This document shows, piece by piece, positions 6,086-45,752 of a stretch of 64,000 nt of DNA. Every line of letters begins with the position of its first letter. The first letter of the stretch is position 1. The stretch lies in assembly GCF_054482525.1 (NCBI RefSeq), contig NZ_CM137006.1; one strand, written 5' to 3'. Position numbers and translations under genes: made by a program. The notes under the pieces were generated by a model. It did no database searches and had not been told where the DNA came from. It was given only the letters and a program-made list of their open reading frames with translations.

Positions 6086-7771
6086 ATGTACGATTTTAAT
6101 CTGGTGTTGCTGCTGCTTCAGCAGATGTGCGTTTTTTTAGTCATTGCGTGGTTAATGAGTAAAACGCCATTATTCATACCGTTAATGCAGGTCACGGTTC
6201 GTCTGCCGCATAAATTTCTCTGCTACATCGTCTTTTCCATCTTCTGCATCATGGGCACCTGGTTTGGGTTGCACATTGACGATTCTATTGCCAATACCCG
6301 TGCGATAGGCGCGGTAATGGGCGGCTTGCTCGGCGGTCCGGTCGTCGGTGGGCTGGTTGGTCTGACCGGCGGGTTACATCGATATTCGATGGGGGGCATG
6401 ACCGCGCTAAGTTGCATGATCTCGACCATCGTTGAAGGATTGCTCGGCGGCCTGGTACACAGCATCCTGATCCGTCGCGGGCGCACTGATAAAGTCTTTA
6501 ACCCCATTACCGCCGGTGCCGTCACGTTCGTCGCTGAAATGGTGCAAATGTTGATCATCCTGGCGATCGCCCGACCTTATGAAGATGCGGTGCGTCTGGT
6601 GAGTAATATTGCTGCGCCAATGATGGTTACCAATACCGTCGGCGCGGCGCTGTTTATGCGTATATTGCTCGATAAACGCGCGATGTTTGAAAAATACACT
6701 TCGGCTTTTTCTGCCACTGCGCTAAAAGTGGCTGCCTCGACGGAAGGCATTTTGCGCCAGGGGTTTAACGAAGTTAACAGCATGAAAGTGGCACAGGTGC
6801 TGTATCAGGAGCTGGATATTGGTGCAGTCGCGATTACCGATCGAGAGAAATTGCTGGCCTTTACCGGAATTGGTGACGATCACCATTTACCCGGCAAACC
6901 GATTTCTTCGACTTACACCTTAAAAGCGATTGAAACCGGTGAAGTGGTCTACGCTGATGGCAACGAAGTACCTTATCGTTGCTCTTTGCATCCGCAATGC
7001 AAACTGGGGTCGACGCTGGTAATTCCGTTGCGTGGTGAAAATCAGCGGGTGATGGGCACCATCAAATTGTATGAAGCCAAAAACCGTTTATTCAGTTCAA
7101 TCAACCGCACGCTGGGCGAGGGGATTGCGCAACTGCTTTCGGCGCAGATCCTCGCCGGGCAATATGAGCGGCAAAAAGCGATGCTCACCCAGTCAGAGAT
7201 CAAACTGCTTCACGCCCAGGTGAACCCCCATTTTTTGTTTAATGCGCTTAACACCATTAAAGCGGTGATCCGCCGCGACAGCGAACAGGCCAGCCAGCTG
7301 GTCCAGTATCTTTCCACTTTTTTCCGCAAAAACTTAAAGCGGCCTTCGGAGTTTGTTACTCTCGCAGACGAAATTGAACATGTGAACGCTTATCTGCAAA
7401 TTGAAAAGGCGCGCTTCCAGTCGCGGTTGCAGGTCAACATTGCTATTCCGCAAGAATTATCCCAGCAGCAATTGCCCGCGTTTACCCTGCAACCGATAGT
7501 GGAAAACGCCATTAAACATGGGACATCACAACTGCTCGATACAGGGCGAGTGGCAATCAGCGCCCGACGTGAGGGGCAACATTTGATGCTGGAGATCGAA
7601 GACAATGCCGGTTTGTATCAACCGGTAACCAATGCCAGTGGGCTGGGGATGAATCTGGTGGATAAGCGTTTACGTGAACGGTTTGGCGATGACTATGGGA
7701 TAAGCGTCGCCTGTGAGCCTGATAGTTACACCCGAATAACGTTACGACTACCATGGAGGGACGAGGCATGA
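6086..7771 (+). CDS. btsS: LytS-type sensor histidine kinase (pyruvate sensing)
   Basis: I chose the start at [13 protein letters not shown] (561 aa, as in K-12 YehU) rather than the GTG at 6071. It has N-terminal multi-TM, GAF-like and His-kinase regions (..HFLFNALN..). The stop overlaps the btsR start. Confidence 0.92.
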
Positions 7772-16244: not shown

Positions 16245-16329
16245 ATAAAAAAACCTGCTGGTGAGGCAGGTTCTTTGATTTACTACTTTCAGGCCTAACA
16301 CCACGGCCTGTGCAACATCGTGTTCCAAC
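16245..16329 (-). ncRNA. orzO: Orz-type antitoxin sRNA (predicted), copy 1
   Basis: Minus-strand promoter TTGCAA-17-TATAAT (-10 at 16336-16341). Minus-strand intrinsic terminator: stem 16252-16258/16266-16272 followed by a U-run. The 5' 20 nt (16310-16329) are complementary to the zor 5' UTR (16476-16495) with 1 mismatch. Ends are predicted, and the O/P naming is arbitrary. Confidence 0.65.
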
Positions 16330-16852: not shown

Positions 16853-16938
16853 AAAATAAAAGAACCTGCTGGTGAGGCAGGTTCTTTTATTTACTACTTT
16901 GATGTTAAGTTACTGATAGTGCAACATGGCATCTCAAC
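16853..16938 (-). ncRNA. orzP: Orz-type antitoxin sRNA (predicted), copy 2
   Basis: Same architecture as copy 1: minus-strand -10 at 16945-16950 and terminator stem 16861-16869/16877-16885. The 5' 20 nt (16919-16938) match the cognate UTR at 17085-17104 with 2 mismatches. Confidence 0.6.
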
Positions 16939-35781: not shown

Positions 35782-36054
35782 ATGTCTCATACCATCCGTG
35801 ATAAACAGAAACTGAAAGCGCGTGCCAGTAAGATTCAGGGCCAGGTCGTGGCGCTCAAGAAAATGCTCGACGAGCCGCACGAATGCGCTGCAGTTTTACA
35901 ACAGATTGCTGCTATCCGTGGCGCGGTAAACGGTCTGATGCGGGAAGTGATTAAAGGTCATCTGACGGAACACATCGTTCACCAGGGGGATGAGCTAAAA
36001 CGTGAAGAAGATCTGGATGTCGTTCTGAAGGTGCTGGATTCTTATATCAAATAA
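35782..36054 (+). CDS. rcnR: CsoR/RcnR-family Ni/Co-responsive repressor
   Basis: 90 aa ([22 protein letters not shown]..), matching K-12 RcnR. Confidence 0.94.
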
Positions 36055-36091
36055 TTTATTAACGCTATTGTAAAACTGCCGTTTTTCCTCG

Positions 36092-36120
36092 TTTACAACG
36101 GGTGCGCTGGACATTACCAT
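36092..36120 (+). promoter_or_regulatory. putative native thiM promoter, now separated from thiMD and pointing into the island integrase
   Basis: TTTACA-17 bp-TACCAT lies immediately upstream of the left copy of the riboswitch sequence. This is a prediction by eye. Confidence 0.45.
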
Positions 36121-36142
36121 CCTCCTCTGCGATTTATCATCG

Positions 36143-36224
36143 CAACCAAACGACTCGGGGTGCCCTTCTGCGTGAAGGCTGAGAAATACCCGTATCACCT
36201 GATCTGGATAATGCCAGCGTAGGG
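36143..36224 (+). repeat. attL: 82-bp direct repeat, a 5' portion of the TPP (thi-box) aptamer that lacks the 3' strand of the closing helix and the expression platform
   Basis: Identical base for base to 44033-44114. It contains CTGAGA and the other thi-box core sequences. It diverges from the thiM leader after ..GCGTAGGG. Confidence 0.9.
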
Positions 36225-36307
36225 GGCCAAAATAGTCTTGAAAATTATGTGGTTGTATCTCTTTTTGACCATAAATCATGCTGTTAAGGTACAAAAAGGG
36301 GTCGTTT

Positions 36308-37615
36308 ATGAGGTCAAGAACTCTCCCATACACATTTCAGCGAAACGGTAATTACTATCTACAAATCCGGCTTTCGGATGGTCGGATATACAAAAAATCA
36401 CTTTTTACTGACAGTTATCGCGAAGCATCGGCGTTGATGATTGGCCTTACTCCGCACATTCCTTTCGTTAAATCACTCGCTACTCCGTTGCCGCAATTTA
36501 ATAAGTTTGTTTCAAACTTGATCGCTTCGTCACGTAACGTAATGATTCCGTTGCCACTCCCTCAGCAATTGAACAATATTTCTAAAGAAGTTTTGCAGCT
36601 TCAACCACCAGCCAAACCGGAAAAGGTACTAACACTTGCTGATGCGTGGGCTATGTACAAGGAGGAAAGAGGTCGAAATTGGACAAAATCGATCTCAATA
36701 GCAAATGAGCGTTATATGGAGGTATTGCTTGTTGTCTTGGGAAAAGAAACAGACGTAACGGCAATCACCAAACAAGATATTAAGCGAGTAATGGAAACTG
36801 TCGAAAACTTACCAAAGCGTGTAGTGCAACCGTATAGGTCAATGACTATTCAGCAACTAATCGAATGTGATGATGTGCTGCCAGAGGATTTAGTTGGTGC
36901 TGAGGCTGTACATAAGCACCTTAAAATCTACAAATCGTTATTCAAAACATTTCTGACTGAAAACAAAGATATTCTATCTAAGTCTCCGACTGATGGAATA
37001 GTAGCGGCACCATCCAAAGCTAGGTTTGGTGCATACAGTGCAGCAGAAATGAAAAAATTTGTAGGATGGGCACTAAAGCAGCCTGATGGATGGCAGAAGT
37101 GGATCACTTTGTTGTTGGCGTACACAGGAGCCAGAAGAGGTGAGATTGCTAAACTGGAGAAGTCGCAGATCAAATTTGATGAAGATAGCCAGCGGCACTA
37201 TCTTCTGATCGCGGAAAGAAGGCTGGGTAAAACTGAGAATGCTACAAGACAGGTAGTGATTCATCCCAAACTGATTGAGTGGGGGTTTCTGGATTTTGTT
37301 AACCGCCAATGGAAAGAGAAAATCTTTTCGGAAGTCTCAGGTCGAAATATGTCAAAGATAGGTAAAGTTCTTTCAGATGTTCGTGATCAGCTTGATATTC
37401 CTTATCTTGATGATTATGGGCAGCGGCGCTTGGTGCATAGTTTCCGGCATACTATGATTTCTACTTGTTTAGCTGGTTGGGTGAGTAATTTGGCGCATCT
37501 GCAACAGGTGGTAGGTCATGAAAAGAGTGGAGTAGGGATTACCCAGCGTTATCTGCACACATTCCCACTTTCCACCGTTTGTTATGTGATCGATGGTCTT
37601 TGTTGGGAGACTTAG
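36308..37615 (+). CDS. tyrosine recombinase / integrase
   Basis: The ORF in the track starts at 36278. I prefer the ATG at 36308, after an AAAGGGG Shine-Dalgarno. N-terminal arm-binding-like RNGNYYLQIRL, then catalytic-domain motifs ARRGEI, HSFRHT and GHEKSGVGITQRYLH (Tyr). Confidence 0.88.
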   Translation: MRSRTLPYTFQRNGNYYLQIRLSDGRIYKKSLFTDSYREASALMIGLTPHIPFVKSLATPLPQFNKFVSNLIASSRNVMIPLPLPQQLNNISKEVLQLQPPAKPEKVLTLADAWAMYKEERGRNWTKSISIANERYMEVLLVVLGKETDVTAITKQDIKRVMETVENLPKRVVQPYRSMTIQQLIECDDVLPEDLVGAEAVHKHLKIYKSLFKTFLTENKDILSKSPTDGIVAAPSKARFGAYSAAEMKKFVGWALKQPDGWQKWITLLLAYTGARRGEIAKLEKSQIKFDEDSQRHYLLIAERRLGKTENATRQVVIHPKLIEWGFLDFVNRQWKEKIFSEVSGRNMSKIGKVLSDVRDQLDIPYLDDYGQRRLVHSFRHTMISTCLAGWVSNLAHLQQVVGHEKSGVGITQRYLHTFPLSTVCYVIDGLCWET

Positions 37616-37743
37616 TTATTCGTGTATCCTTCTTAGTGTATAACCAGCTAATAATTTGTAGATTTTTATTGTCTGAGATCAAAAATTTTCACAACTAATT
37701 TACAATAATAACTTAAGATGAATTTAGGCTTAGTGAGTCTTCT

Positions 37744-38469
37744 ATGGTTAAAAATTTAGGCAAAAAATACAAGTATGGCGATCAACCGATAAGAGCTATT
37801 ACCATACAGATAATTGCTAATCAGTTTGGTGGGGCTGCAACGGCTAAGCAGGTAGATGATTATCTTAGAAAGCTATTTCCATCTTATAAAGATAATACTT
37901 GGCTCAATTTAATTGCTAATACAGTTAATTGTAAGCGGAGCTACTGGAGTTTCAACAAAACTGCCCGACGAACTGATGATGTAACTCATCGGCATCATAA
38001 GTATGACCGATTGTTCAAGCGTGGAAATATTTTTGAAATCTATCAACCATCTGTGCACGGTATTTGGGAATTATACCAGGATTTAGAAGGGATGTGGCGT
38101 TATCGTCAAGTAAAATCGGTTTTCGAAGAAGCTGTTGAGACGGCTGCAAAATTATCTTCAGTGGAACGAAAGCAAATTTTAGCGACAGAAAGTAAAATCC
38201 CGGAACTAATCGAAGTAACAACACGAGTTTATAAACGAAGCCCATATGTAGTTGCTGAAGTTCTTTTGAGAGCAAATGGAAAATGTCAATATTGTAAGCG
38301 AGATGCTCCTTTTCTAAAGGAAGATGGTACTCCATTTCTAGAAGTTCATCATATTGAGTGGCTTTCAAAGGGGGGGGAGGACTCTGTGGAAAATGCTATT
38401 GCATTATGTCCTAATTGCCATAGACAAGCCCATTATGGCGATCTGACATTACTACCTGTTAATAAATAG
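37744..38469 (+). CDS. HNH nuclease-domain protein with an uncharacterised 170-aa N-terminal domain (McrA-like architecture)
   Basis: C-terminal CQYCKRDAPF..EVHHIEWLSKGGEDSVENAIALCPNCHRQAH is a canonical HNH/zinc-ribbon motif. No adjacent methyltransferase gene. Confidence 0.8.
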   Translation: MVKNLGKKYKYGDQPIRAITIQIIANQFGGAATAKQVDDYLRKLFPSYKDNTWLNLIANTVNCKRSYWSFNKTARRTDDVTHRHHKYDRLFKRGNIFEIYQPSVHGIWELYQDLEGMWRYRQVKSVFEEAVETAAKLSSVERKQILATESKIPELIEVTTRVYKRSPYVVAEVLLRANGKCQYCKRDAPFLKEDGTPFLEVHHIEWLSKGGEDSVENAIALCPNCHRQAHYGDLTLLPVNK

Positions 38470-38546
38470 GCTTGATGAAAGTTCTATTTCTATATTTTTC
38501 AATATACAAATTTCCCCAAAAACGGCGTGAATATCACGCCGATCAA

Positions 38547-38894
38547 TCATACTTCAGAACACATACTCAATGTGTAAACAGCCATCTCCCCATCGGGATT
38601 AGAAGGGCGTAATACAAATATCGGTATACTGCCATTGTCAATGTATGTGGCTGCAACCCCTCCGTCAGGTGTAGCATACATCTTTGCGATGCTTTTTTGA
38701 CCTACAAAATCAAGTCTCCAAGTTTTACCGCCAAGATTTATGGTCATTTTTTTATCTTGTATATCAAAAGTTGAATCTACAGAAACTTTCTGACTTCCCG
38801 AGTCAATATGACCTTCCTGTATTGCTTTACAGGAAAAGGTTGTGGCGTGGCCCATCACTGGAATTAACAAAGCGGCAAATACTAGTTTTTTCAT
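38547..38894 (-). CDS. small secreted protein of unknown function
   Basis: I prefer the start at MKKLVFAALLIPVMGHA (signal peptide), after an AAGGGAGA Shine-Dalgarno. 115 aa with two Cys. The ORF-track start at 38951 is rejected. Confidence 0.7.
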   Translation of the reverse strand: MKKLVFAALLIPVMGHATTFSCKAIQEGHIDSGSQKVSVDSTFDIQDKKMTINLGGKTWRLDFVGQKSIAKMYATPDGGVAATYIDNGSIPIFVLRPSNPDGEMAVYTLSMCSEV

Positions 38895-39004
38895 TTGTCT
38901 CCCTTGGTGTGTCAAATGGATGGTGATGCTAATAATACATGATTGATTCAAAATGTCACGATTAGTGCGTGGTTAATTGGTGCGTCAAATTGCATCTTTG
39001 TGCC

Positions 39005-39469
39005 ATGCGAAAGAATCTGAGATACCTTTTTGGACAACGAGTAAAAGAGTTCCGTATAGCTATTGGCTTAAGCCAAGAGGCCTTTGCAGATCGGTGTGGT
39101 TTTGCACGTAGTTATATGAGTCGAATTGAGCGTGGTTGCTCTAATGCATCTCTTGATGCAATTGAGGTTCTGGCTGACGCTTTGCGTATTGAGCCTTGGC
39201 AGTTACTGGCTTCTGATTCAAGGAAACCTGATGATCAGGAGGTACTTGTTCCTTATGCTGCAGATGGGTCGTGTTTTCATCCAGGATTGGCAAGTACTCG
39301 CGATGGTTCGTTTAGAGTAGGGGAAAAATCAGCCCAGAAACGTTTCAGTTCGTTCAATGAAGCTCTCGAATACCTTCGTGGAATGGAAACCGCGAAGTGG
39401 CGTAGGCCTAATGCTAGTGGTAATTGGGGAATTGTATCTGCGGTTAAATGGGATCGACTGAATCAATAA
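39005..39469 (+). CDS. XRE-family HTH protein fused to an uncharacterised C-terminal domain
   Basis: HTH region LSQEAFADRCGFARSYMSRIERGCSNASLDAIEVLADAL. The 90-aa C-terminal part (..ETAKWRRPNASGNWGIVSAVKWD..) is not recognisable to me. Start chosen at MRKNLRYLFG. Confidence 0.75.
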   Translation: MRKNLRYLFGQRVKEFRIAIGLSQEAFADRCGFARSYMSRIERGCSNASLDAIEVLADALRIEPWQLLASDSRKPDDQEVLVPYAADGSCFHPGLASTRDGSFRVGEKSAQKRFSSFNEALEYLRGMETAKWRRPNASGNWGIVSAVKWDRLNQ

Positions 39470-39635
39470 GATATCAGTAATTTTCGGGCCACTCCACAAG
39501 GCAATAAGTGGCTTAGTGGTGATTATCGAAGGGGAATACAAGCGAGCACCTAGGCACCATTGCAAGAACCGCTCAACGCTGAGATCAGCAAGCCCCGATT
39601 TTTGCCGACCGTCCCTGTCAAATATCAAGGAGGCA

Positions 39636-40187
39636 TTACGCCACCTGCTCTTTCTTGATACGTTGCACCGTCTGCGTGCTGACACTGAAATCTTTTGCTA
39701 CGCTCCGAATTGAGCCACCATTCGCGAGAGCGGCAGCAATTCCCGCTCGATCAATTGCTTTTCCATTACCACGTTTTGCTATACGTCCAGCGGCCTTGGC
39801 TGCGGCGATCCCTTCACGTTGACGCTCAAGCATCATTTCACGTTCCATTTGTGCCACTGCTGCAAGAACTGTGAGCATCATATTCCCTGCGGGAGAGTTC
39901 TTTCCTGTCTTAAAGTCTTCTTTATGGAAATGCACAGACACGCCGCGCTTTGTTAATTGCTCTACAGTTGCCAGAAGGTCGGCTGTATTACGACAAAGGC
40001 GATCAATACTATGGACGTGTAACACGTCACCCTCCCGCACATAGTTCATCATTGCCTCAAACTGTGGGCGCTGAGTGTTCTTGCCTGACGCTTTATCTTC
40101 AAAGACTTTATCAAGAGTTACTCCTGCTAATTGACGGTCTGTGTTTTGTTGCACAGTCGATACCCTAATGTATCCAATATTAGCCAT
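39636..40187 (-). CDS. serine recombinase (resolvase/invertase family)
   Basis: MANIGYIRVSTVQQNTDRQ contains the catalytic Ser. Also VHSIDRLCRN and a C-terminal HTH (SIRSVAKDFSVSTQTVQRI). 183 aa. Confidence 0.9.
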   Translation of the reverse strand: MANIGYIRVSTVQQNTDRQLAGVTLDKVFEDKASGKNTQRPQFEAMMNYVREGDVLHVHSIDRLCRNTADLLATVEQLTKRGVSVHFHKEDFKTGKNSPAGNMMLTVLAAVAQMEREMMLERQREGIAAAKAAGRIAKRGNGKAIDRAGIAAALANGGSIRSVAKDFSVSTQTVQRIKKEQVA

Positions 40188-40214
40188 CTTCTTTTTTCTT
40201 CTGTATTGATTTGT

Positions 40215-40318
40215 GTGTAGTGATTATTGAACGTGTTGATTAGGTGTGTAAAGTACTTTTTTCACTACGAAATTCGAAGTTTTTTAGTGTGGTGATTTAG
40301 CCTGCCTTATCACTACAC
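40215..40318. promoter_or_regulatory. res-like site upstream of the serine recombinase gene
   Basis: Perfect 10-bp inverted repeat GTGTAGTGAT (40215-40224) / ATCACTACAC (40309-40318), with inner related half-sites TCACTAC (40262-40268) and TAGTGTGGTGA (40285-40295). Confidence 0.5.
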
Positions 40319-40572
40319 TTCTTGCATGAGAATCATGTAGTTACATTTTGGTAAAATTAGCAAGCTATTAAATTGTGTGTTTATTTTGAAAAAATAATTT
40401 TTGTTGCATTAAAGAAAACTTGTTCGACAAATAATAGGTTGATTTTTGATCAATAATTTCTGATAGTGCTCTGTAAGCCGCATTACACAAGGCGCAGCGA
40501 AAGTGATGTAAAAGTGAAGAAAGCTAACATTGCACTTTTAAACTACTTTTCATTGAATTTTTTAGTATGGAA

Positions 40573-40643
40573 TTACACAGGAATAAGTTAGGGATATTCT
40601 ATGATTTACACAGGGAATATAGGGGGATTATGGTATTACACAG
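40573..40643 (+). repeat. three direct repeats of about 20 bp with core TTACACAG, spaced 33 and 30 bp
   Basis: TATGGAATTACACAGGAATA, TATGATTTACACAGGGAATA and TATGGTATTACACAGAGTGA. Cores are at 40573, 40606 and 40636. Confidence 0.7.
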
Positions 40644-40673
40644 AGTGAGTGCTATGTGATGATTGGTAGTAAC

Positions 40674-40782
40674 GGTAGGTCACTGTGAACTAGGGGGGTA
40701 GGTCACTGTGAACTAGGGGGGTAGGTCACTGTGAGCTAGGGGGTAGGTCACTGTGAACTAGGGGGTAGGTCACTGTGAACTA
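40674..40782 (+). repeat. five contiguous iterons (GGTAGGTCACTGTGAACTAGGGG, period 23/23/22/22 bp): putative vegetative origin
   Basis: Read directly from the sequence. Copy 3 carries one A-to-G change. The array is immediately followed by an AT-rich tract. Confidence 0.85.
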
Positions 40783-40877
40783 CAATAAGACTATAATAAG
40801 ACTATTAATAAAACTATATTAGATTATTAATTAGATCATAATAATAATATTCTTTATATCTATATATATATGATCTT
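40783..40877. other. AT-rich tract next to the iterons (candidate DNA-unwinding element)
   Basis: Almost pure A/T, with internal AATAAGACTAT x2 and a TATATATATAT run. Confidence 0.5.
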
Positions 40878-41883
40878 TTGCCTTCCGGCGTTAGCTTCAC
40901 TCTCTGGCAAGCAGCCTTACTCCGCTACCTTTCGGGCTACGTTGGCTGGCCCGTTCCGCTCACACCGAAAGCAAAGCGTTACTTTCTTCGTGTAACTTCG
41001 TTGGCGGTAACGCCCACGAAGGAATACTATTGCGCTGTGCGCAGTAAGAGTAATCACCTAACCAATCATCTGATTGCTTACGTGTTAACTCTCTCTAACT
41101 CTTAATTACCCTCCTACATTTAATAACTCTCGTTATTCTCTGTAGTTGTGTAATTACTCGAAGAGAGAGCGGCTAAAGCTCAATTACACTCTGCTTTCCT
41201 CGTGTAATTTCACTAAGCCTCAATACAATTTCACTTCCTACATTCTGTAGTCGTGTAATTGTTTTCGGTGGAAAAGCCAGAGGCGACACCGAAAGAGAAT
41301 TCTGATCTTATTAATCTTATCTATCTTAGTTATCTTACTTACTTTATCTACTTTATTATTAATAATAGCTTTATAAGCTCTCTGTGTAGCTCTCTGACGC
41401 AAGAAACAGAGTTCAGGAAGGGAATCACCTTAGAAAAGTGTTCTTTGCGTCATAATGTGTTTTATGAAGGATTCAGAGGTGTTTCATAACAGAGATGTAT
41501 AGAGGATACTTTAGGTAATTAAAAATAAGGGGTCTAAATGCTTCTCTAACAGCATTAAGCAGGGTAGAGAATGGAAACCGCTTTGCCTACATATATAAAC
41601 TCACTACAGGGCTTTACAGAGCGTTTTATAAAGTGACTCTCTGTTTTATATCTACCATCACCTTTTCATATACCTAACAAATACAAAATAAGCCCCTTAA
41701 ATAAGCCTCTGGCGAGCTAAACAGCCATTACATAAGAGAATGTATTGCTTTTATCAAAACCTCGTTAGAACGCGTTTTAGAGCGTTTTAGCGGATAATGA
41801 AGAATAGCACTACACAGGAGAGCACGAATTGCTAAGAAAAAATGTAACTACATGAAAAAGATCAGATTTTTTGTGAAAAGGTA

Positions 41884-41912
41884 TTGACAAACGTCTCTTT
41901 CTGTGCAATAAT
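41884..41912 (+). promoter_or_regulatory. predicted sigma70 promoter upstream of the rep-like operon
   Basis: TTGACA (41884-41889), 17 bp, then AATAAT (41907-41912). Confidence 0.5.
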
Positions 41913-41965
41913 AGGTATTAGAGGGACAGGAATAGATTCTTATCCTCTAAATAATTAAACCAATG

Positions 41966-42010
41966 CACCGCACTTTGAAGCCCAAGGCTTGTAAGGTGTG
42001 TTTTTTCTTT
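41966..42010 (+). terminator. intrinsic-terminator-like hairpin between the promoter and the first ORF (attenuator, or the 3' end of a roughly 90-nt sRNA)
   Basis: Long imperfect stem 41966-41982/41986-42000 around a CAA loop, followed by TTTTTTCTTTT. It lies 29 bp upstream of the ATG at 42039. Confidence 0.55.
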
Positions 42011-42038
42011 TAACCAAATAGAATAAGGAGGCTAATTA

Positions 42039-42227
42039 ATGAAATATTTTACTCCACAGGATGTAGTAGAAGCCTGGAAACGTGGTGAGATCAACCGCTT
42101 TAAAGTAAGGATGTATAGAAACACCGCTCGCCGTTGTGGTTATCCAGAGCGTGAAAAATGTTTTGACGATGCACTAAAAATTATTGATGAACTGCGTAAA
42201 GCTGAGAAAGAAGCAGAGAAAAAATAA
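42039..42227 (+). CDS. 62-aa basic/acidic small protein, unknown function
   Basis: Strong AAGGAGG Shine-Dalgarno 8 nt upstream. It is the first ORF of a tightly packed 4-gene cluster. Confidence 0.65.
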   Translation: MKYFTPQDVVEAWKRGEINRFKVRMYRNTARRCGYPEREKCFDDALKIIDELRKAEKEAEKK

Positions 42228-42249
42228 TAGACAAGAGAAGGAGAAAACT

Positions 42250-42417
42250 ATGAGCGAAACTAAGAAACCAATTCCGCGCACTTACCTACACGTTGACCCT
42301 GAAATCTTCAAGGTTTTATTTGCTGAAGCCAAGAAAAGGCAAATTATGGTCAGTGATTTGATGTTAGAAATCATTACTGAAGCAGCAGAGAACATCAAAC
42401 AAAAAAAGGGTAAGTGA
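42250..42417 (+). CDS. 55-aa ribbon-helix-helix (CopG/Arc-like) protein candidate
   Basis: Start at MSETKKPIPRTYLHV after AAGGAGAA. The beta-strand, helix, helix pattern (RTYLHVDPEIFKVLFAEAKKRQIMVSDLMLEII) fits an RHH fold. The ORF-track start at 42184 is rejected. Confidence 0.6.
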   Translation: MSETKKPIPRTYLHVDPEIFKVLFAEAKKRQIMVSDLMLEIITEAAENIKQKKGK

Positions 42418-42468
42418 TCCTCATTCACTTTAGTAGCGCATTAAGCGTGATTTATAAGGAGATTTTTA

Positions 42469-43158
42469 ATGATTAATCAACTAACTTTTACAAAACACTA
42501 TGACACGTTTGATAATGTATCAAAGATTTATTCTGATAAATTCCCTCAAGGAAAAGATTTAGATCTATTACATATTGTGCTTTATTTTCGATTCCTTAGT
42601 TATCAGGAAAACAACCTTAATTGTTATGAAAGTCACGAAACATTAGCTAAGATTTTTAAGTCTTCAGCGTCAACAATTAAACGTAAGATAAACGATCTTA
42701 AAGAGATGGGATTATTAGAAACATCCCCACATCCTGATCCGTATATTTCATCTTTGATTTACAATGCTCTCCCTCTCACAGATGCACATATTACTCCCCC
42801 AGGAGAATCATCACTCTCTGATCTTTCTGAGGCAGAAGAAGCACAGGAACAACCTAAAGGCCATAAACAGCCTTCTTTTGATGTTCTTGATGATTGGGAT
42901 ACGCCTTTACCCTGGGAGACGGAAGAAACACCTGTTTCATCAAGTGAAAAAGTAGCTAATGATAATGAGGAGGATGTGTTAGAGAATTTTGCCTCTCTTA
43001 TCATCCAGGAGAAACACACAAGAACAGGAGGAGCATCATTTATTGAGTTTGCAAATTCACTAGCTTGTAGATACGGGCTAAAACGACCAAATGGTATTGA
43101 GGCATATTTTTCTAAGAATTACCCAAATATATACGATGACTTTGATATTCCATTTTAA
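42469..43158 (+). CDS. putative replication initiator (winged-helix N-terminal domain, acidic C-terminal half)
   Basis: HETLAKIFKSSASTIKRKINDLKEMGLLE is an HTH/wHTH like those in DnaD/Rep-type initiators. AAGGAG Shine-Dalgarno. It is encoded near the iteron array. The function is inferred. Confidence 0.55.
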   Translation: MINQLTFTKHYDTFDNVSKIYSDKFPQGKDLDLLHIVLYFRFLSYQENNLNCYESHETLAKIFKSSASTIKRKINDLKEMGLLETSPHPDPYISSLIYNALPLTDAHITPPGESSLSDLSEAEEAQEQPKGHKQPSFDVLDDWDTPLPWETEETPVSSSEKVANDNEEDVLENFASLIIQEKHTRTGGASFIEFANSLACRYGLKRPNGIEAYFSKNYPNIYDDFDIPF

Positions 43159-43169
43159 TAAGGAGGGTT

Positions 43170-43415
43170 ATGATTCAATATTTAGTAAAAAATCAAGTAG
43201 ACAGAATTCAGTGTAATGACACAGGAAAACGCATCTACGAGACACTTGTTTACCTCTATAAAGGAAAGCCAACACCGCTAAAATATAGCGATGTGTTACA
43301 TCGAGCAGGTTGCTCTGAGTCAGGTTTAAAATTCTGGCTGAAACAGCTATCAAATTTCGGTGTTATTGAAATGAAAGAGCTGTCTTTTTCTACATTCAAC
43401 CTCAAGAAGTTATAG
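43170..43415 (+). CDS. 81-aa winged-helix-like small DNA-binding protein candidate
   Basis: AAGGAGGG Shine-Dalgarno. The YSDVLHRAGCSESGLKFWLKQLSNFGVIE segment looks like a wHTH. Confidence 0.55.
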   Translation: MIQYLVKNQVDRIQCNDTGKRIYETLVYLYKGKPTPLKYSDVLHRAGCSESGLKFWLKQLSNFGVIEMKELSFSTFNLKKL

Positions 43416-43483
43416 AAAATAGAATTCATCTATTCCACGCTCTAATTCTATTTCTCTGTTTAATATAAAAGGAAAACATTATT

Positions 43484-43561
43484 ATGGTAATAGCTATGTG
43501 GTGGTTGTTGTTTTTTATGCTCGTAGAAACATATGCAAGTAAGTCTGGAAAACAAAAATAA
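43484..43561 (+). CDS. candidate 25-aa hydrophobic peptide (MVIAMWWLLFFMLVETYASKSGKQK)
   Basis: Hand-translated. AAGGA lies 10 nt upstream. It has a hydrophobic N-terminal part and a basic tail, like type I toxins or small membrane peptides. There is no other support. Confidence 0.25.
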   Translation: MVIAMWWLLFFMLVETYASKSGKQK

Positions 43562-43580
43562 TATATTGATGATTTGTTTT

Positions 43581-43820
43581 TTATAACTTCGTGGTGTCAA
43601 GTCCAGCAGCTTTGAGTCGCTCGGTAAGATTTCTCATTTTGCTGAACTCTGTACCAAAGCTGGCTTTAAGTCCTACACCTTCACAAAACTCTTTTGCCGT
43701 AACCTTTTTCAGATGGTCAGCATATTTGATCATCTGGAGGTGCATTTCCATCGTTTGGCTATTTCGTGGTGCGCTGCTAATGGCTTGCTTAATGTTCTCG
43801 TAGATCTGGGTTTCTGTCAT
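43581..43820 (-). CDS. 79-aa protein of unknown function at the right end of the island
   Basis: Clean ORF, MTETQIYENIKQAISSAPRNSQ... It is the last gene before attR. Confidence 0.6.
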   Translation of the reverse strand: MTETQIYENIKQAISSAPRNSQTMEMHLQMIKYADHLKKVTAKEFCEGVGLKASFGTEFSKMRNLTERLKAAGLDTTKL

Positions 43821-44032
43821 TTTTTATCTCACCTATCAAATTTAGATAAATAATATAAATTAGCAAATTAAGATAATCAATAGTTTTTATCATCTGAATG
43901 ATAGATGTTAAATGTTTCTTTTTCATTTCTGATATGGGGTACAAAATGGGGTACACAGAGAAGAAGCAATTAATGGAGGCGAGCTTGCATCTGCAAGCCA
44001 CTTCCCCTAAGCTGGCACAAAATATAGAGATT

Positions 44033-44166
44033 CAACCAAACGACTCGGGGTGCCCTTCTGCGTGAAGGCTGAGAAATACCCGTATCACCTGATCTGGATA
44101 ATGCCAGCGTAGGGAAGTCACGGACCACCAGGTCATTGCTTCTTCACGTTATGGCAGGAGCAAACT
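44033..44166 (+). promoter_or_regulatory. complete TPP (thi-box) riboswitch of thiM; its first 82 nt form the attR repeat
   Basis: CGACTCGGGGTGCCCTTCTGCGTGAAGGCTGAGAAATACCCGTATCACCTGATCTGGATAATGCCAGCGTAGGGAAGTC matches the well-studied E. coli thiM aptamer. It is followed by the native expression platform and a GGAG Shine-Dalgarno. Confidence 0.92.
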
Positions 44167-44955
44167 ATGCAAGTCGACCTGCTGAGTTCCGCGCAATCTG
44201 CGCACGCGTTACACCTTTTTCACCAACATTCCCCTCTTGTGCACTGCATGACCAACGATGTGGTGCAAACCTTTACTGCCAATACCTTGCTGGCGCTCGG
44301 TGCATCGCCAGCGATGGTTATCGAAACCGAAGAGGCCAGTCAGTTTGCGGCTATCGCCAGTGCGTTGCTGATTAACGTTGGCACGCTGACGCAGCCACGC
44401 GCACAGGCGATGCGTGCCGCCGTTGAACAGGCAAAACGCTCTCAAACACCCTGGATGCTTGATCCAGTAGCGGTGGGTGCACTCGATTATCGCCGCCGTT
44501 TTTGTCTGGAACTTCTGTCTCATAAGCCAACCGCCATACGTGGTAATGCTTCGGAAATCATGGCATTAGCTGGCGTTGCTAATGGTGGACGGGGAGTGGA
44601 TACCACTGACGCCGCAGCTAACGCGATACCCGCTGCACAAACACTGGCACGGGAAACTGGCGCAATCGTCGTGGTCACTGGCGAGATGGATTATGTTACC
44701 GATGGACATCGTATCATTGGTATTCACGGTGGCGATCCGTTAATGACCAAAGTGGTAGGAACTGGCTGTGCATTATCGGCGGTTGTCGCTGCCTGTTGTG
44801 CGTTACCAGGCGATATGCTGGAAAATGTCGCATCTGCCTGTCACTGGATGAAACAAGCCGGAGAACGCGCAGTCGCCAGAAGCGAGGGGCCAGGCAGTTT
44901 TGTTCCACATTTCCTTGATGCGCTCTGGCAATTGACGCAGGAGGTGCAGGCATGA
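44167..44955 (+). CDS. thiM: hydroxyethylthiazole kinase
   Basis: 262 aa ([32 protein letters not shown]..), matching K-12 ThiM. The stop overlaps the thiD start. Confidence 0.95.
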
Positions 44956-45752
44956 AACGAATTAACGCTCTGACGATTGCCGGTACTGATCCGAGTGGTG
45001 GTGCGGGGATTCAGGCCGATCTTAAAACCTTCTCGGCACTTGGCGCTTATGGTTGCTCAGTGATTACTGCACTGGTGGCGCAAAATACCCGTGGCGTACA
45101 GTCGGTGTATCGCATTGAGCCTGATTTTGTCGCCGCCCAGCTCGATTCGGTGTTCAGCGATGTGCGAATCGACACCACTAAAATCGGTATGTTGGCGGAA
45201 ACCGATATTGTTGAAGCGGTGGCAGAACGGTTGCAACGTTATCAGATCCAAAACGTGGTACTCGACACCGTTATGCTGGCAAAAAGCGGCGACCCGCTGC
45301 TTTCACCTTCGGCGGTTGCTACGCTGCGCAGTCGATTATTGCCACAGGTTTCATTAATAACGCCAAACTTGCCCGAAGCTGCTGCCTTGCTCGACGCGCC
45401 ACACGCGCGCACCGAACAGGAAATGCTGGAACAAGGGCGATCGCTGTTGGCGATGGGCTGTGGCGCAGTGCTAATGAAAGGTGGTCATCTGGATGATGAA
45501 CAAAGCCCGGACTGGCTGTTTACCCGCGAGGGTGAACAACGGTTTACGGCACCGCGCATTATGACCAAAAACACCCACGGCACTGGTTGTACACTCTCTG
45601 CGGCGTTGGCTGCACTACGCCCGCGCCATACAAACTGGGCAGACACCGTCCAGGAGGCAAAAAGCTGGCTTTCATCGGCGTTAGCCCAGGCCGACACGCT
45701 GGAAGTTGGTCACGGTATTGGTCCGGTTCACCACTTCCACGCCTGGTGGTGA
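44952..45752 (+). CDS. thiD: hydroxymethylpyrimidine / phosphomethylpyrimidine kinase
   Basis: 266 aa ([27 protein letters not shown]..), matching K-12 ThiD. Confidence 0.95.

Follow-up and report, generated by a model that had tools for sequence, protein, structure and literature searches.

How can a vitamin-biosynthesis operon stay expressed once a mobile element has come between its genes and its promoter? The question is raised by a 64,000-nt stretch of Escherichia coli DNA (contig NZ_CM137006.1 of NCBI RefSeq assembly GCF_054482525.1; hereafter the window, with positions counted from its first base). A 7.8-kb island (36225-44032) is sited between rcnR and thiM and is bracketed by a perfect 82-bp direct repeat, which corresponds to most of the thiamine pyrophosphate (TPP) riboswitch aptamer of thiM. 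Window positions 35800-44500 are 100% identical to strain SCU-102. In the integrated state, the native promoter of thiMD is 7.9 kb distant from the genes. We suggest that the island brings a replacement and that, with a probability of about 0.7, a promoter at its end initiates thiMD transcription near position 44019 in strains that carry it.

Transcription from the island end

The original prediction was that integration strips thiMD of its native promoter and leaves the riboswitch and coding regions intact at the right end of the island (attR). This is confirmed by the aptamer match, the intact thiM and thiD genes, and the location of the native promoter upstream of the left end (attL; table 1). 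The DNA 3' of the attR aptamer, which comprises the expression platform and thiM, is identical to that of other E. coli. An outward promoter positioned to transcribe thiMD had also been placed in the last 50 bp of the island, and it is supported by a start site mapped 148 nt from thiM in strain EDL933 and by conservation of its hexamers in 17 island ends (both described below). Direct reading of the sequence bears out the positions given for the two hexamers and the 17 bp between them (spacer at 43991-44007). The -10 hexamer is separated from the repeat, which starts at 44033, by 19 nt, and the native promoter ends 22 nt before the attL repeat.

Table 1. Features of the island and of the thiMD locus, in window coordinates
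Feature	Position	Strand	Remarks
Displaced native thiM promoter, TTTACA-17-TACCAT	36092-36120	+	Found by 9/12 consensus scan
attL copy of 82-bp direct repeat	36143-36224	+	Host-derived aptamer, now upstream of int
Tyrosine integrase gene (int)	36308-37615	+	Next to attL; Phage_integrase domain
HTH_73 (helix-turn-helix-like) protein gene	43581-43820	-	Pfam PF24718, E = 1e-30; last island gene, divergent from the outward promoter
Two GGGGTACA direct repeats	43936-43955	+	Putative arm-type integrase sites
Block ii', GAAGAAGCAAT	43960-43970	+	Perfect complement of ATTGCTTCTTC (44137-44147), anti-Shine-Dalgarno region of the thiM expression platform
Homologue of EDL933 201-nt start	43966	+	EDL933 has one 12-bp GGGGTACA unit fewer further upstream; upstream promoter context differs
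Palindrome GCTTGCA-tc-TGCAAGC	43983-43998		Perfect 7+7 inverted repeat overlapping the -35; direct sequence reading
-35 hexamer TTGCAT	43985-43990	+	Direct sequence reading
Block i', CCCCTAAGCTGGCA	44004-44017	+	Contains the -10; inverted copy, 13/14, of TGCCAGCGTAGGGG (3' end of aptamer, crossover region)
-10 hexamer TAAGCT	44008-44013	+	TAATCT or TACGCT in relatives; direct sequence reading
Inferred thiM start (A)	44019	+	Homologous to EDL933 148-nt site, measured in EDL933; 5 nt after TAAGCT
Homologue of EDL933 137-nt start	44030	+	Candidate -10 CAAAAT at 44018-44023 (inferred)
attR copy of 82-bp direct repeat	44033-44114	+	Left of the crossover near its 3' end, island-borne; most of TPP aptamer
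Intact thiM TPP riboswitch aptamer	44036-44132	+	Rfam RF00059, 71.2 bits (gathering score 54.3), model positions 1-105
thiM	44167-44955	+	Intact; annotated intact in 100% identical SCU-102
thiD	44952-45752	+	Intact; annotated intact in 100% identical SCU-102

Start sites in EDL933 provide direct evidence for transcription from an island end. Primary 5' ends of this strain were mapped by Cappable-seq, with a start site called when it was reproducible in three biological replicates of one condition (Zehentner et al., BMC Microbiol 2023; PMC10469882). For thiM (enterohemorrhagic E. coli [EHEC] gene 15540, which is EDL933_RS15540), sheet 3 of supplementary file 6 of that study gives starts 137, 148, and 201 nt from the start codon, and 150 nt for the MG1655 start in RegulonDB. 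The EDL933 starts were mapped relative to the thiM ATG at position 6142 of the EDL933 locus (L059). At the end of the island remnant in EDL933, the hexamers are identical to TTGCAT and TAAGCT of the window, and the 148-nt start falls directly after them (table 1). The K-12 value of 150 nt places the native start at window position 36127, 6 nt after TACCAT, which validates the convention of counting from the start codon. Because the last base of the island is 135 nt from the thiM ATG, all three EDL933 starts fall inside the 70 bp that derive from the island. Native thiM promoter DNA is absent from EDL933, as it is from strain TW14359. The island end is transcriptionally active toward thiM in EDL933, which has no other promoter DNA there. 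BL21 and O157 are thiamine prototrophs, but an argument from thiamine prototrophy in the EDL933 study was not used because the M9 medium contained thiamine. A literature search found no start-site data set for B strains, and a 2017 NAR paper on BL21(DE3) (PMC5435950) mentions neither start sites nor thiM.

The island-end promoter resembles the native thiM promoter of K-12 in that both are weak sigma-70 promoters, their -10 hexamers end 28-31 nt before GACTCGGGG, and they yield 5' untranslated regions (UTRs) of 148 and 150 nt, respectively. The two differ in their hexamers (TTGCAT/TAAGCT versus TTTACA/TACCAT). A blastn comparison of native upstream DNA to the island ends gave no match, with no similarity upstream of the repeat.

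The distribution of remnants is consistent with retention of this end next to thiM. Of 5426 complete E. coli genomes, 564 have the final 65 bp of the island but only 64 the island as a whole, and most of the others among the 564 have integrase-less remnants. Carriers of remnants include the O157:H7/O55:H7 clade, whose end is 97% identical, the B strains BL21(DE3), C43, and Rosetta, whose end is 86% identical, and singletons such as GF3-3. In 402 of the 5426 genomes, native thiM promoter DNA is missing. The rcnR-thiM locus of BL21(DE3), TW14359, EDL933, and GF3-3 is without it, and only island-derived DNA fronts the thiM riboswitch in these lineages. The remnants of BL21(DE3), O157:H7, and GF3-3 all retain the terminal 48 bp or more beside the riboswitch. 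In GF3-3, homology starts exactly at TTGCAT and 48 bp are left; we did not treat this minimal remnant as a natural deletion series because the arrangement is unique to one genome and is thus an anecdote. The gap between rcnR and thiM in GF3-3 (L005, 7694-10697) encodes a RelA/SpoT-domain protein and a NACHT-domain protein, together resembling a defense system, and also has an insertion sequence fragment.

Conservation among diverged islands covers the key positions of the promoter. Seventeen diverged right ends that share sequence with that of the window (class A) were aligned over 82 columns upstream of the aptamer; they derive from Escherichia, Enterobacter, Atlantibacter, Dryocola, Lelliottia, Erwinia, Pantoea, Silvania, Mangrovibacter, Buttiauxella, and Leclercia. 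A class-A right end consists of GGGGTACA repeats followed by ...GCTTGC-N4-GCAAGC-aACTTCCCC-TAA(G/T)CT-GGCAaAAAgTATAGAGATTCAA. Twenty-one of the 82 columns are invariant or near-invariant. In the -35, TT is invariant and G near-invariant, and in the -10, T1 and A2 are invariant and A3, C5, and T6 near-invariant. The six key promoter positions (TTG and TA...T) all belong to the 21 conserved columns (hypergeometric p ~1.6e-4, a value that ignores clustering of columns). The spacer is mostly 17 bp and is 16 bp in one end. In 12 of 13 class-A ends, this site is the best match to a position weight matrix (PWM) for sigma-70, and its distance to GACTCGG is a constant 28-29 nt. A second group of right ends from islands of the same integrase family (class B) is nonhomologous to class A in the promoter stretch. 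In seven of eight class-B ends, a promoter-like site (TTGAGT, TTGTGT, or TTTACA, 17 bp, then CATGAT, CATTAT, or TACTAT) precedes the aptamer by a constant 54-56 nt.

Several observations weigh against the island end having been correctly read as the promoter of thiMD. The site matches the sigma-70 consensus at only 6 of 12 positions, which are the six most informative, and is therefore weak; a consensus scan with a threshold of 9/12 lists the native promoter and misses this one. With the PWM, an approximate matrix built from literature base frequencies, it scores 9.0 bits versus 11.7 for the native promoter. It has the top score on the plus strand within 43400-44040, the last 640 bp of the island, and the pattern TTGNNN-N16-18-TANNNT has a frequency of 0.023 per 50 nt. 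Nevertheless, 126 sites on both strands of the window score at least as high (approximately one per kb of strand), 23% of random 130-nt island windows contain a site of at least 8.2 bits, the median of the best scores in 21 island ends (lower than the ~9 bits of the promoter), and the ends are not significantly enriched for high PWM scores relative to island interiors. Only positional conservation, not PWM score, is informative. Yet the whole terminal 60 bp are conserved, including in active islands, and this could be because of recombination functions or of an inverted copy of the leader (see below). The start-site evidence, moreover, is from EDL933, which carries a remnant of a related island, and not from the strain of the window. 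The TAAGCT-linked site is one of three starts within ~70 nt in EDL933, and with ~20,000 start sites reported for the strain (PMC10469882), weak or pervasive initiation is common.

The last point of this kind is that no convincing intrinsic terminator is found between 43415, where the last plus-strand open reading frame (ORF) ends, and 44033. Read-through from island genes could thus be the main source of thiMD transcripts, or thiD could depend on a promoter inside thiM, with the terminal motif contributing little. The EDL933 start at 201 nt also indicates that some transcription enters from further upstream. We consider this very unlikely as the principal route. The nearest upstream gene, that of the HTH_73 protein, is on the opposite strand, such that transcription from it converges on that of any read-through. 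Remnants in O157 and BL21 differ in, or have lost, the upstream plus-strand genes yet keep the end, and two of the three EDL933 starts are within 16 nt of the last base of the island.

Two other candidate promoter elements near the island end were rejected. CTGGCAC (44013-44019) resembles a sigma-54 -24 element, but GC is absent at -12. TATAGA (44023-44028) as a -10 lacks T6 and a -35, and it varies among relatives while TAAnCT is constant.

A riboswitch as the target of integration

The position of the promoter is tied to where the integrase recombines. Relatives of the integrase with 64-84% identity are present in about 25 genera of Enterobacterales, among them Buttiauxella, Lelliottia, Enterobacter, Dryocola, Serratia, Silvania, Leclercia, Pseudenterobacter, Atlantibacter, Citrobacter, Klebsiella, Pantoea, Rahnella, Franconibacter, Erwinia, Winslowiella, Mangrovibacter, and Kosakonia. 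In 29 of 32 loci checked, a fragment of the TPP aptamer is directly upstream of the integrase gene; the remaining three have a truncated or partial integrase match and the attR copy alone. The second aptamer copy, wherever it is in range, is followed by thiM. In loci of Lelliottia, Enterobacter, and Pantoea, identity between the attL and attR copies is confined to their last 26-48 nt (...CTGGATAATGCCAGCGTAG). This places the crossover at the 3' end of the repeat, near ...ATGCCAGCGTAG, and implies that attR DNA to the left of it is island-borne, including ~70 nt of the aptamer. Because the island replaces the 5' part of the thiM leader, an element-borne promoter is logically needed if the target is to stay expressed. 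Judged by these locus comparisons, the integrase family always targets the thiM TPP riboswitch, and a riboswitch is new as an attachment site. A literature search of the searchable library for thiM or the TPP riboswitch as an attachment site returned nothing relevant. If this holds, the family would be the first to be described with such a site.

Integrases that are more distantly related (29-38% identity; L035-L053, L056, and L057) are in marine Gammaproteobacteria, including Methylophaga, Microbulbifer, Marinobacter, and Porticoccaceae. Among these loci, a GACTCGGGGTGCC-like motif is present only in L035 and L039, far from int.

In the mechanism that we propose, an integrase of this family would recombine inside the TPP aptamer of thiM, at its 3' end, and the right end of the island would supply the 5' part of the leader, with ~73-82 nt of aptamer. 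The weak sigma-70 promoter directly upstream of this part (43985-44013) would start transcription at ~44019 and give rise to a 5' UTR of 148 nt versus the native 150 nt. RNA from ~44019 would hold a complete, normal riboswitch, and thiMD would therefore stay expressed and regulated by TPP. Upstream of int would remain the native promoter, together with the host's own aptamer copy. In effect, integration swaps promoters between int and thiMD.

At attL, the displaced native promoter and a full aptamer (36146-36241; 61.3 bits over the full Rfam model) are upstream of int; 84 nt separate the repeat from the int ATG (36308), and in this interval the scan found no promoter with a score of 9/12 or more. 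At attL, the integrase may be transcribed from the native thiM promoter, and on the same sequence grounds could come under the influence of the TPP riboswitch.

The lack of such a site next to int also raises the possibility that the outward promoter mainly serves to express int after excision, by way of the aptamer copy, with transcription of thiMD as a by-product or a second benefit. int and the promoter are at opposite ends of the island and point in the same direction, so that circularization fuses the promoter upstream of int. ICEclc provides a precedent: its Pcirc is a constitutive promoter at the int-distal end that faces outward and comes to be upstream of int once the ends join (Sentchilo et al. 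2003, reviewed in PMC5812530). The aptamer copy shared by attL and the joined site (attP) still scores 61.3 bits, and natural attP-like junctions exist in chromosomes, where tandem arrays and stacked remnants also indicate that resident attR sites are reused. In L012, L014, L029, and L034, a class-A or class-B right end is directly upstream of the attL of another island; these and the tandem pair L021/L010, on one contig of Enterobacter nematophilus, have the class-A right end, aptamer, left end, and int in series. Conversely, no excised form was found, with 0 matches to the attP junction in viral contigs, and the integrase-less remnants of O157:H7, B strains, and GF3-3 keep the promoter where only thiMD can benefit. 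We regard a primary role in the excised circle as possible but less probable than not by some distance, and it is compatible with the promoter also transcribing thiMD.

Transcription of thiMD from the island end in the strain of the window is presumed from these data. Likewise, the promoter is presumably maintained by selection on thiMD expression and not by selection on int expression in the excised state. That the element evolved to replace the promoter it displaces, as was originally proposed, is one of several possible readings; the Pcirc-like geometry and the conserved inverted copy offer others.

The palindrome and complementarity to the thiM leader

The original prediction also identified a perfect palindrome that overlaps the -35 and proposed that it is an operator. 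The sequence and the overlap are as described, but the palindrome is located at 43983-43998, one base to the left of the given 43984-43999. The arrangement would fit a binding site, GCTTGC-N4-GCAAGC, for a repressor of the island-end promoter encoded by the island or the host. The inverted repeat is centered on the -35, and the island encodes two helix-turn-helix (HTH) proteins. Across the 17 class-A ends, 93% of cells in the 6-bp arms are paired and the 4-nt center varies (ATCT, AAGA, CTCA, AACA, GCCA, GTCA, and ACCA); conserved arms with a free center are the pattern expected of a dimer-binding site. Nonetheless, we find an operator here rather improbable. None of the covariation between arms is significant in the 17 ends, and several one-sided changes yield G-U-compatible pairs. 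The palindrome is in single copy in the island, and within two mismatches no second copy is present in the window other than one chance-level match outside of the island. No cognate protein is tied to it. GF3-3 lacks the left arm yet has kept the -35, and remnants in O157 and BL21 lack the Cro/C1-type HTH gene. A more obvious autoregulatory site, with the same 6-4-6 layout, is TATCAT-ctga-ATGATA at ~43888-43903, at the HTH_73 promoter. The palindrome was also considered as an intrinsic terminator and rejected, as neither strand has a U-tract there and the terminator scan did not pick it up.

TATCAT-ctga-ATGATA overlaps a predicted minus-strand promoter of the HTH_73 gene (ATGAAA-17-TATCAT, 43926-43898) and is a candidate autoregulatory operator of that gene. 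The O157 and BL21 remnants keep the HTH_73 gene.

Folding of 43960-44170 revealed that the palindrome is flanked by two blocks complementary to the thiM leader (i' and ii'; table 1). The partner of block ii', ATTGCTTCTTC, is host DNA that is not otherwise carried by the island. In E. nematophilus (L010, 19999-20016), block ii' matches the host's own variant of the leader at 18 of 18 positions. When island ends were compared to the reverse-complemented leader, with shuffled sequences as controls, scores were up to 42-43 in class A (null maximum 25-28) and 41-47 in class B (null maximum 24-28). Two long-range helices are 86.6% paired across 10 class-A attR regions, versus 33-47% when slid, and five pairs have changed on both sides; across genera, the inverted copy covaries with the leader of the host. 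Helix 3, formed by block i', is 90% paired; its sole universal mismatch is position 3 of the -10, where the exact complement TACGCT has become TAAGCT, that is, toward the -10 consensus. In the minimum free energy fold, the inverted copy clamps the riboswitch (z = -2.65). The inverted copy could be an accessory site for the integrase, an RNA clamp in long transcripts, or a fossil.

These complementarities bear on an explanation in which the island end is a recombination or structural element and the hexamers are incidental. The terminal 70 bp would be conserved as part of the P arm of attP, with sites for integrase, Xis, or integration host factor or an inverted pseudo-core, or else through base pairing with the thiM leader, and the EDL933 starts would reflect weak pervasive initiation in AT-rich foreign DNA. 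The -10 resides within a block that is complementary to the crossover region, the GGGGTACA repeats adjoin the complementary blocks, and class-B ends, unrelated in sequence, also hold an inverted copy of the core. The paired fraction across the 10 loci, the two-sided changes, and the unexceptional promoter scores are in agreement with it. What makes this explanation unlikely is the reproducible primary 5' end in EDL933 at the distance expected from TAAGCT and the ~400 genomes that have no other upstream promoter DNA for thiMD. In addition, complementarity is broken in all sequences at a single position, and the change there improves the -10. Recombination and promoter roles are, moreover, compatible.

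The two roles could be combined. In a tentative view, which we think improbable in its full form, the right end is a host-matched module that consists of a promoter and an inverted leader copy, and that upon excision places promoter and aptamer before int. Sigma-70 transcripts would begin immediately 3' of block i' and include a normal TPP riboswitch. The inverted copy would comprise block ii', the palindrome, and block i', would be absent from the other end, and would covary with the leader of each host. Longer transcripts, from read-through or upstream starts, could pair with the 3' strand of aptamer P4/P5 and with the anti-Shine-Dalgarno region. Such pairing would clamp the riboswitch open and lead to TPP-independent thiMD expression, or would mark the RNA for processing. 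Recombination partners would exchange promoters, and the integrase may fall under control of the thiamine riboswitch.

Class-B islands have further structure at their ends. In L014, L018, L023, L024, L026, L034, L054, and L055, an inverted copy of the whole core region, CGCTGGCAT[G/T]ATCCAGA[A/T]CAGG, is ~55-100 nt upstream of attR and is followed by a hairpin (GATTAACG-gga-CGTTAATC) and a T-rich tract. The left ends in L018, L020, and L034 have a C-overlap-C' core, TGGATAATGCCAG-CGTAGTC-CTGGCGATTATCC.

Relation to known systems and other features of the window

The principle of a replacement promoter is already known; the riboswitch as target is new. As is the case for SXT/R391 elements at prfC, an element with a tyrosine integrase occupies the 5' region of a host gene, its outer end supplies a replacement 5' part, and the gene stays functional. 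The outer end of SXT reportedly also supplies a promoter for prfC. The thiM island differs in that it targets a cis-regulatory RNA and replaces no coding sequence, and in its small size of 7.8 kb. SXT, an integrative and conjugative element of 100 kb, targets protein-coding DNA, at the 5' extremity of prfC (PMC5812530). Islands and prophages at dusA similarly have an integrase family dedicated to a single site at the 5' end of a gene, where sequence of the element takes the place of the host's. Before as well as after integration, dusA has putative -10 and -35 elements upstream (Farrugia et al. 2015; PMC4482086). There, promoters are only predicted and the target consists of codons, whereas in the thiM family a start has been mapped in a related remnant and the target is a riboswitch leader.

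With Pcirc of ICEclc, the likeness is in geometry alone, which is identical at the right end of the island in the window. Pcirc is not known to serve its target, a tRNA-Gly gene that is restored at its 3' end, whereas here the promoter would also feed the interrupted host operon. Islands in tRNA and tmRNA genes (Islander; PMC4383910) carry a copy of the displaced part that regenerates the target, and the displaced fragment marks the other end. They share with the thiM family a structured RNA gene as target, regenerated by an element-borne copy. They restore the 3' part and need no promoter, in contrast to the thiM family, which restores the 5' part and hence needs one. The principle of a target-restoring integrase, as at the 3' ends of tRNA genes and the 5' ends of prfC and dusA, is thereby extended to a riboswitch.

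It follows from the proposed mechanism that a mobile element can enter the leader of a vitamin-biosynthesis operon harmlessly by bringing a promoter and most of the riboswitch. In ~7% of complete E. coli genomes, including the O157:H7 lineage, BL21(DE3), and C43, a foreign promoter appears to be the sole one left for thiMD. The thiMp promoter of RegulonDB is absent from the strains that lost the native promoter, which matters for thiamine regulation, riboswitch studies, and promoter annotation in them. The host-matched inverted leader copy may modulate the riboswitch or recombination.

Other genes of the island encode an HNH endonuclease, a Cro/C1-type HTH protein, and a serine recombinase, and there are a few small plus-strand ORFs. 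The sequence GGTACAAAAAGGGGTC, which is related to the GGGGTACA repeats, precedes int at 36288-36303. A 1.85-kb stretch of the island (40188-42038) is gene-free in the RefSeq annotation; within it are five tandem iterons of 22-23 bp (GGGGGTAGGTCACTGTGAACTA) at 40671-40787. This stretch probably serves as the origin of replication on which the HTH_36/DUF6945 protein encoded at 42469-43158 acts. A perfect 17-bp inverted repeat pair, its members 1.5 kb apart, is located at 40333-40349 and 41839-41855. Outside of the island, two matches to the OrzO-P antitoxin RNA (Rfam RF02083, ~90 bits each) on the minus strand, at 16247-16322 and 16858-16931, indicate that a zor-orz type I toxin-antitoxin pair is present in the window.

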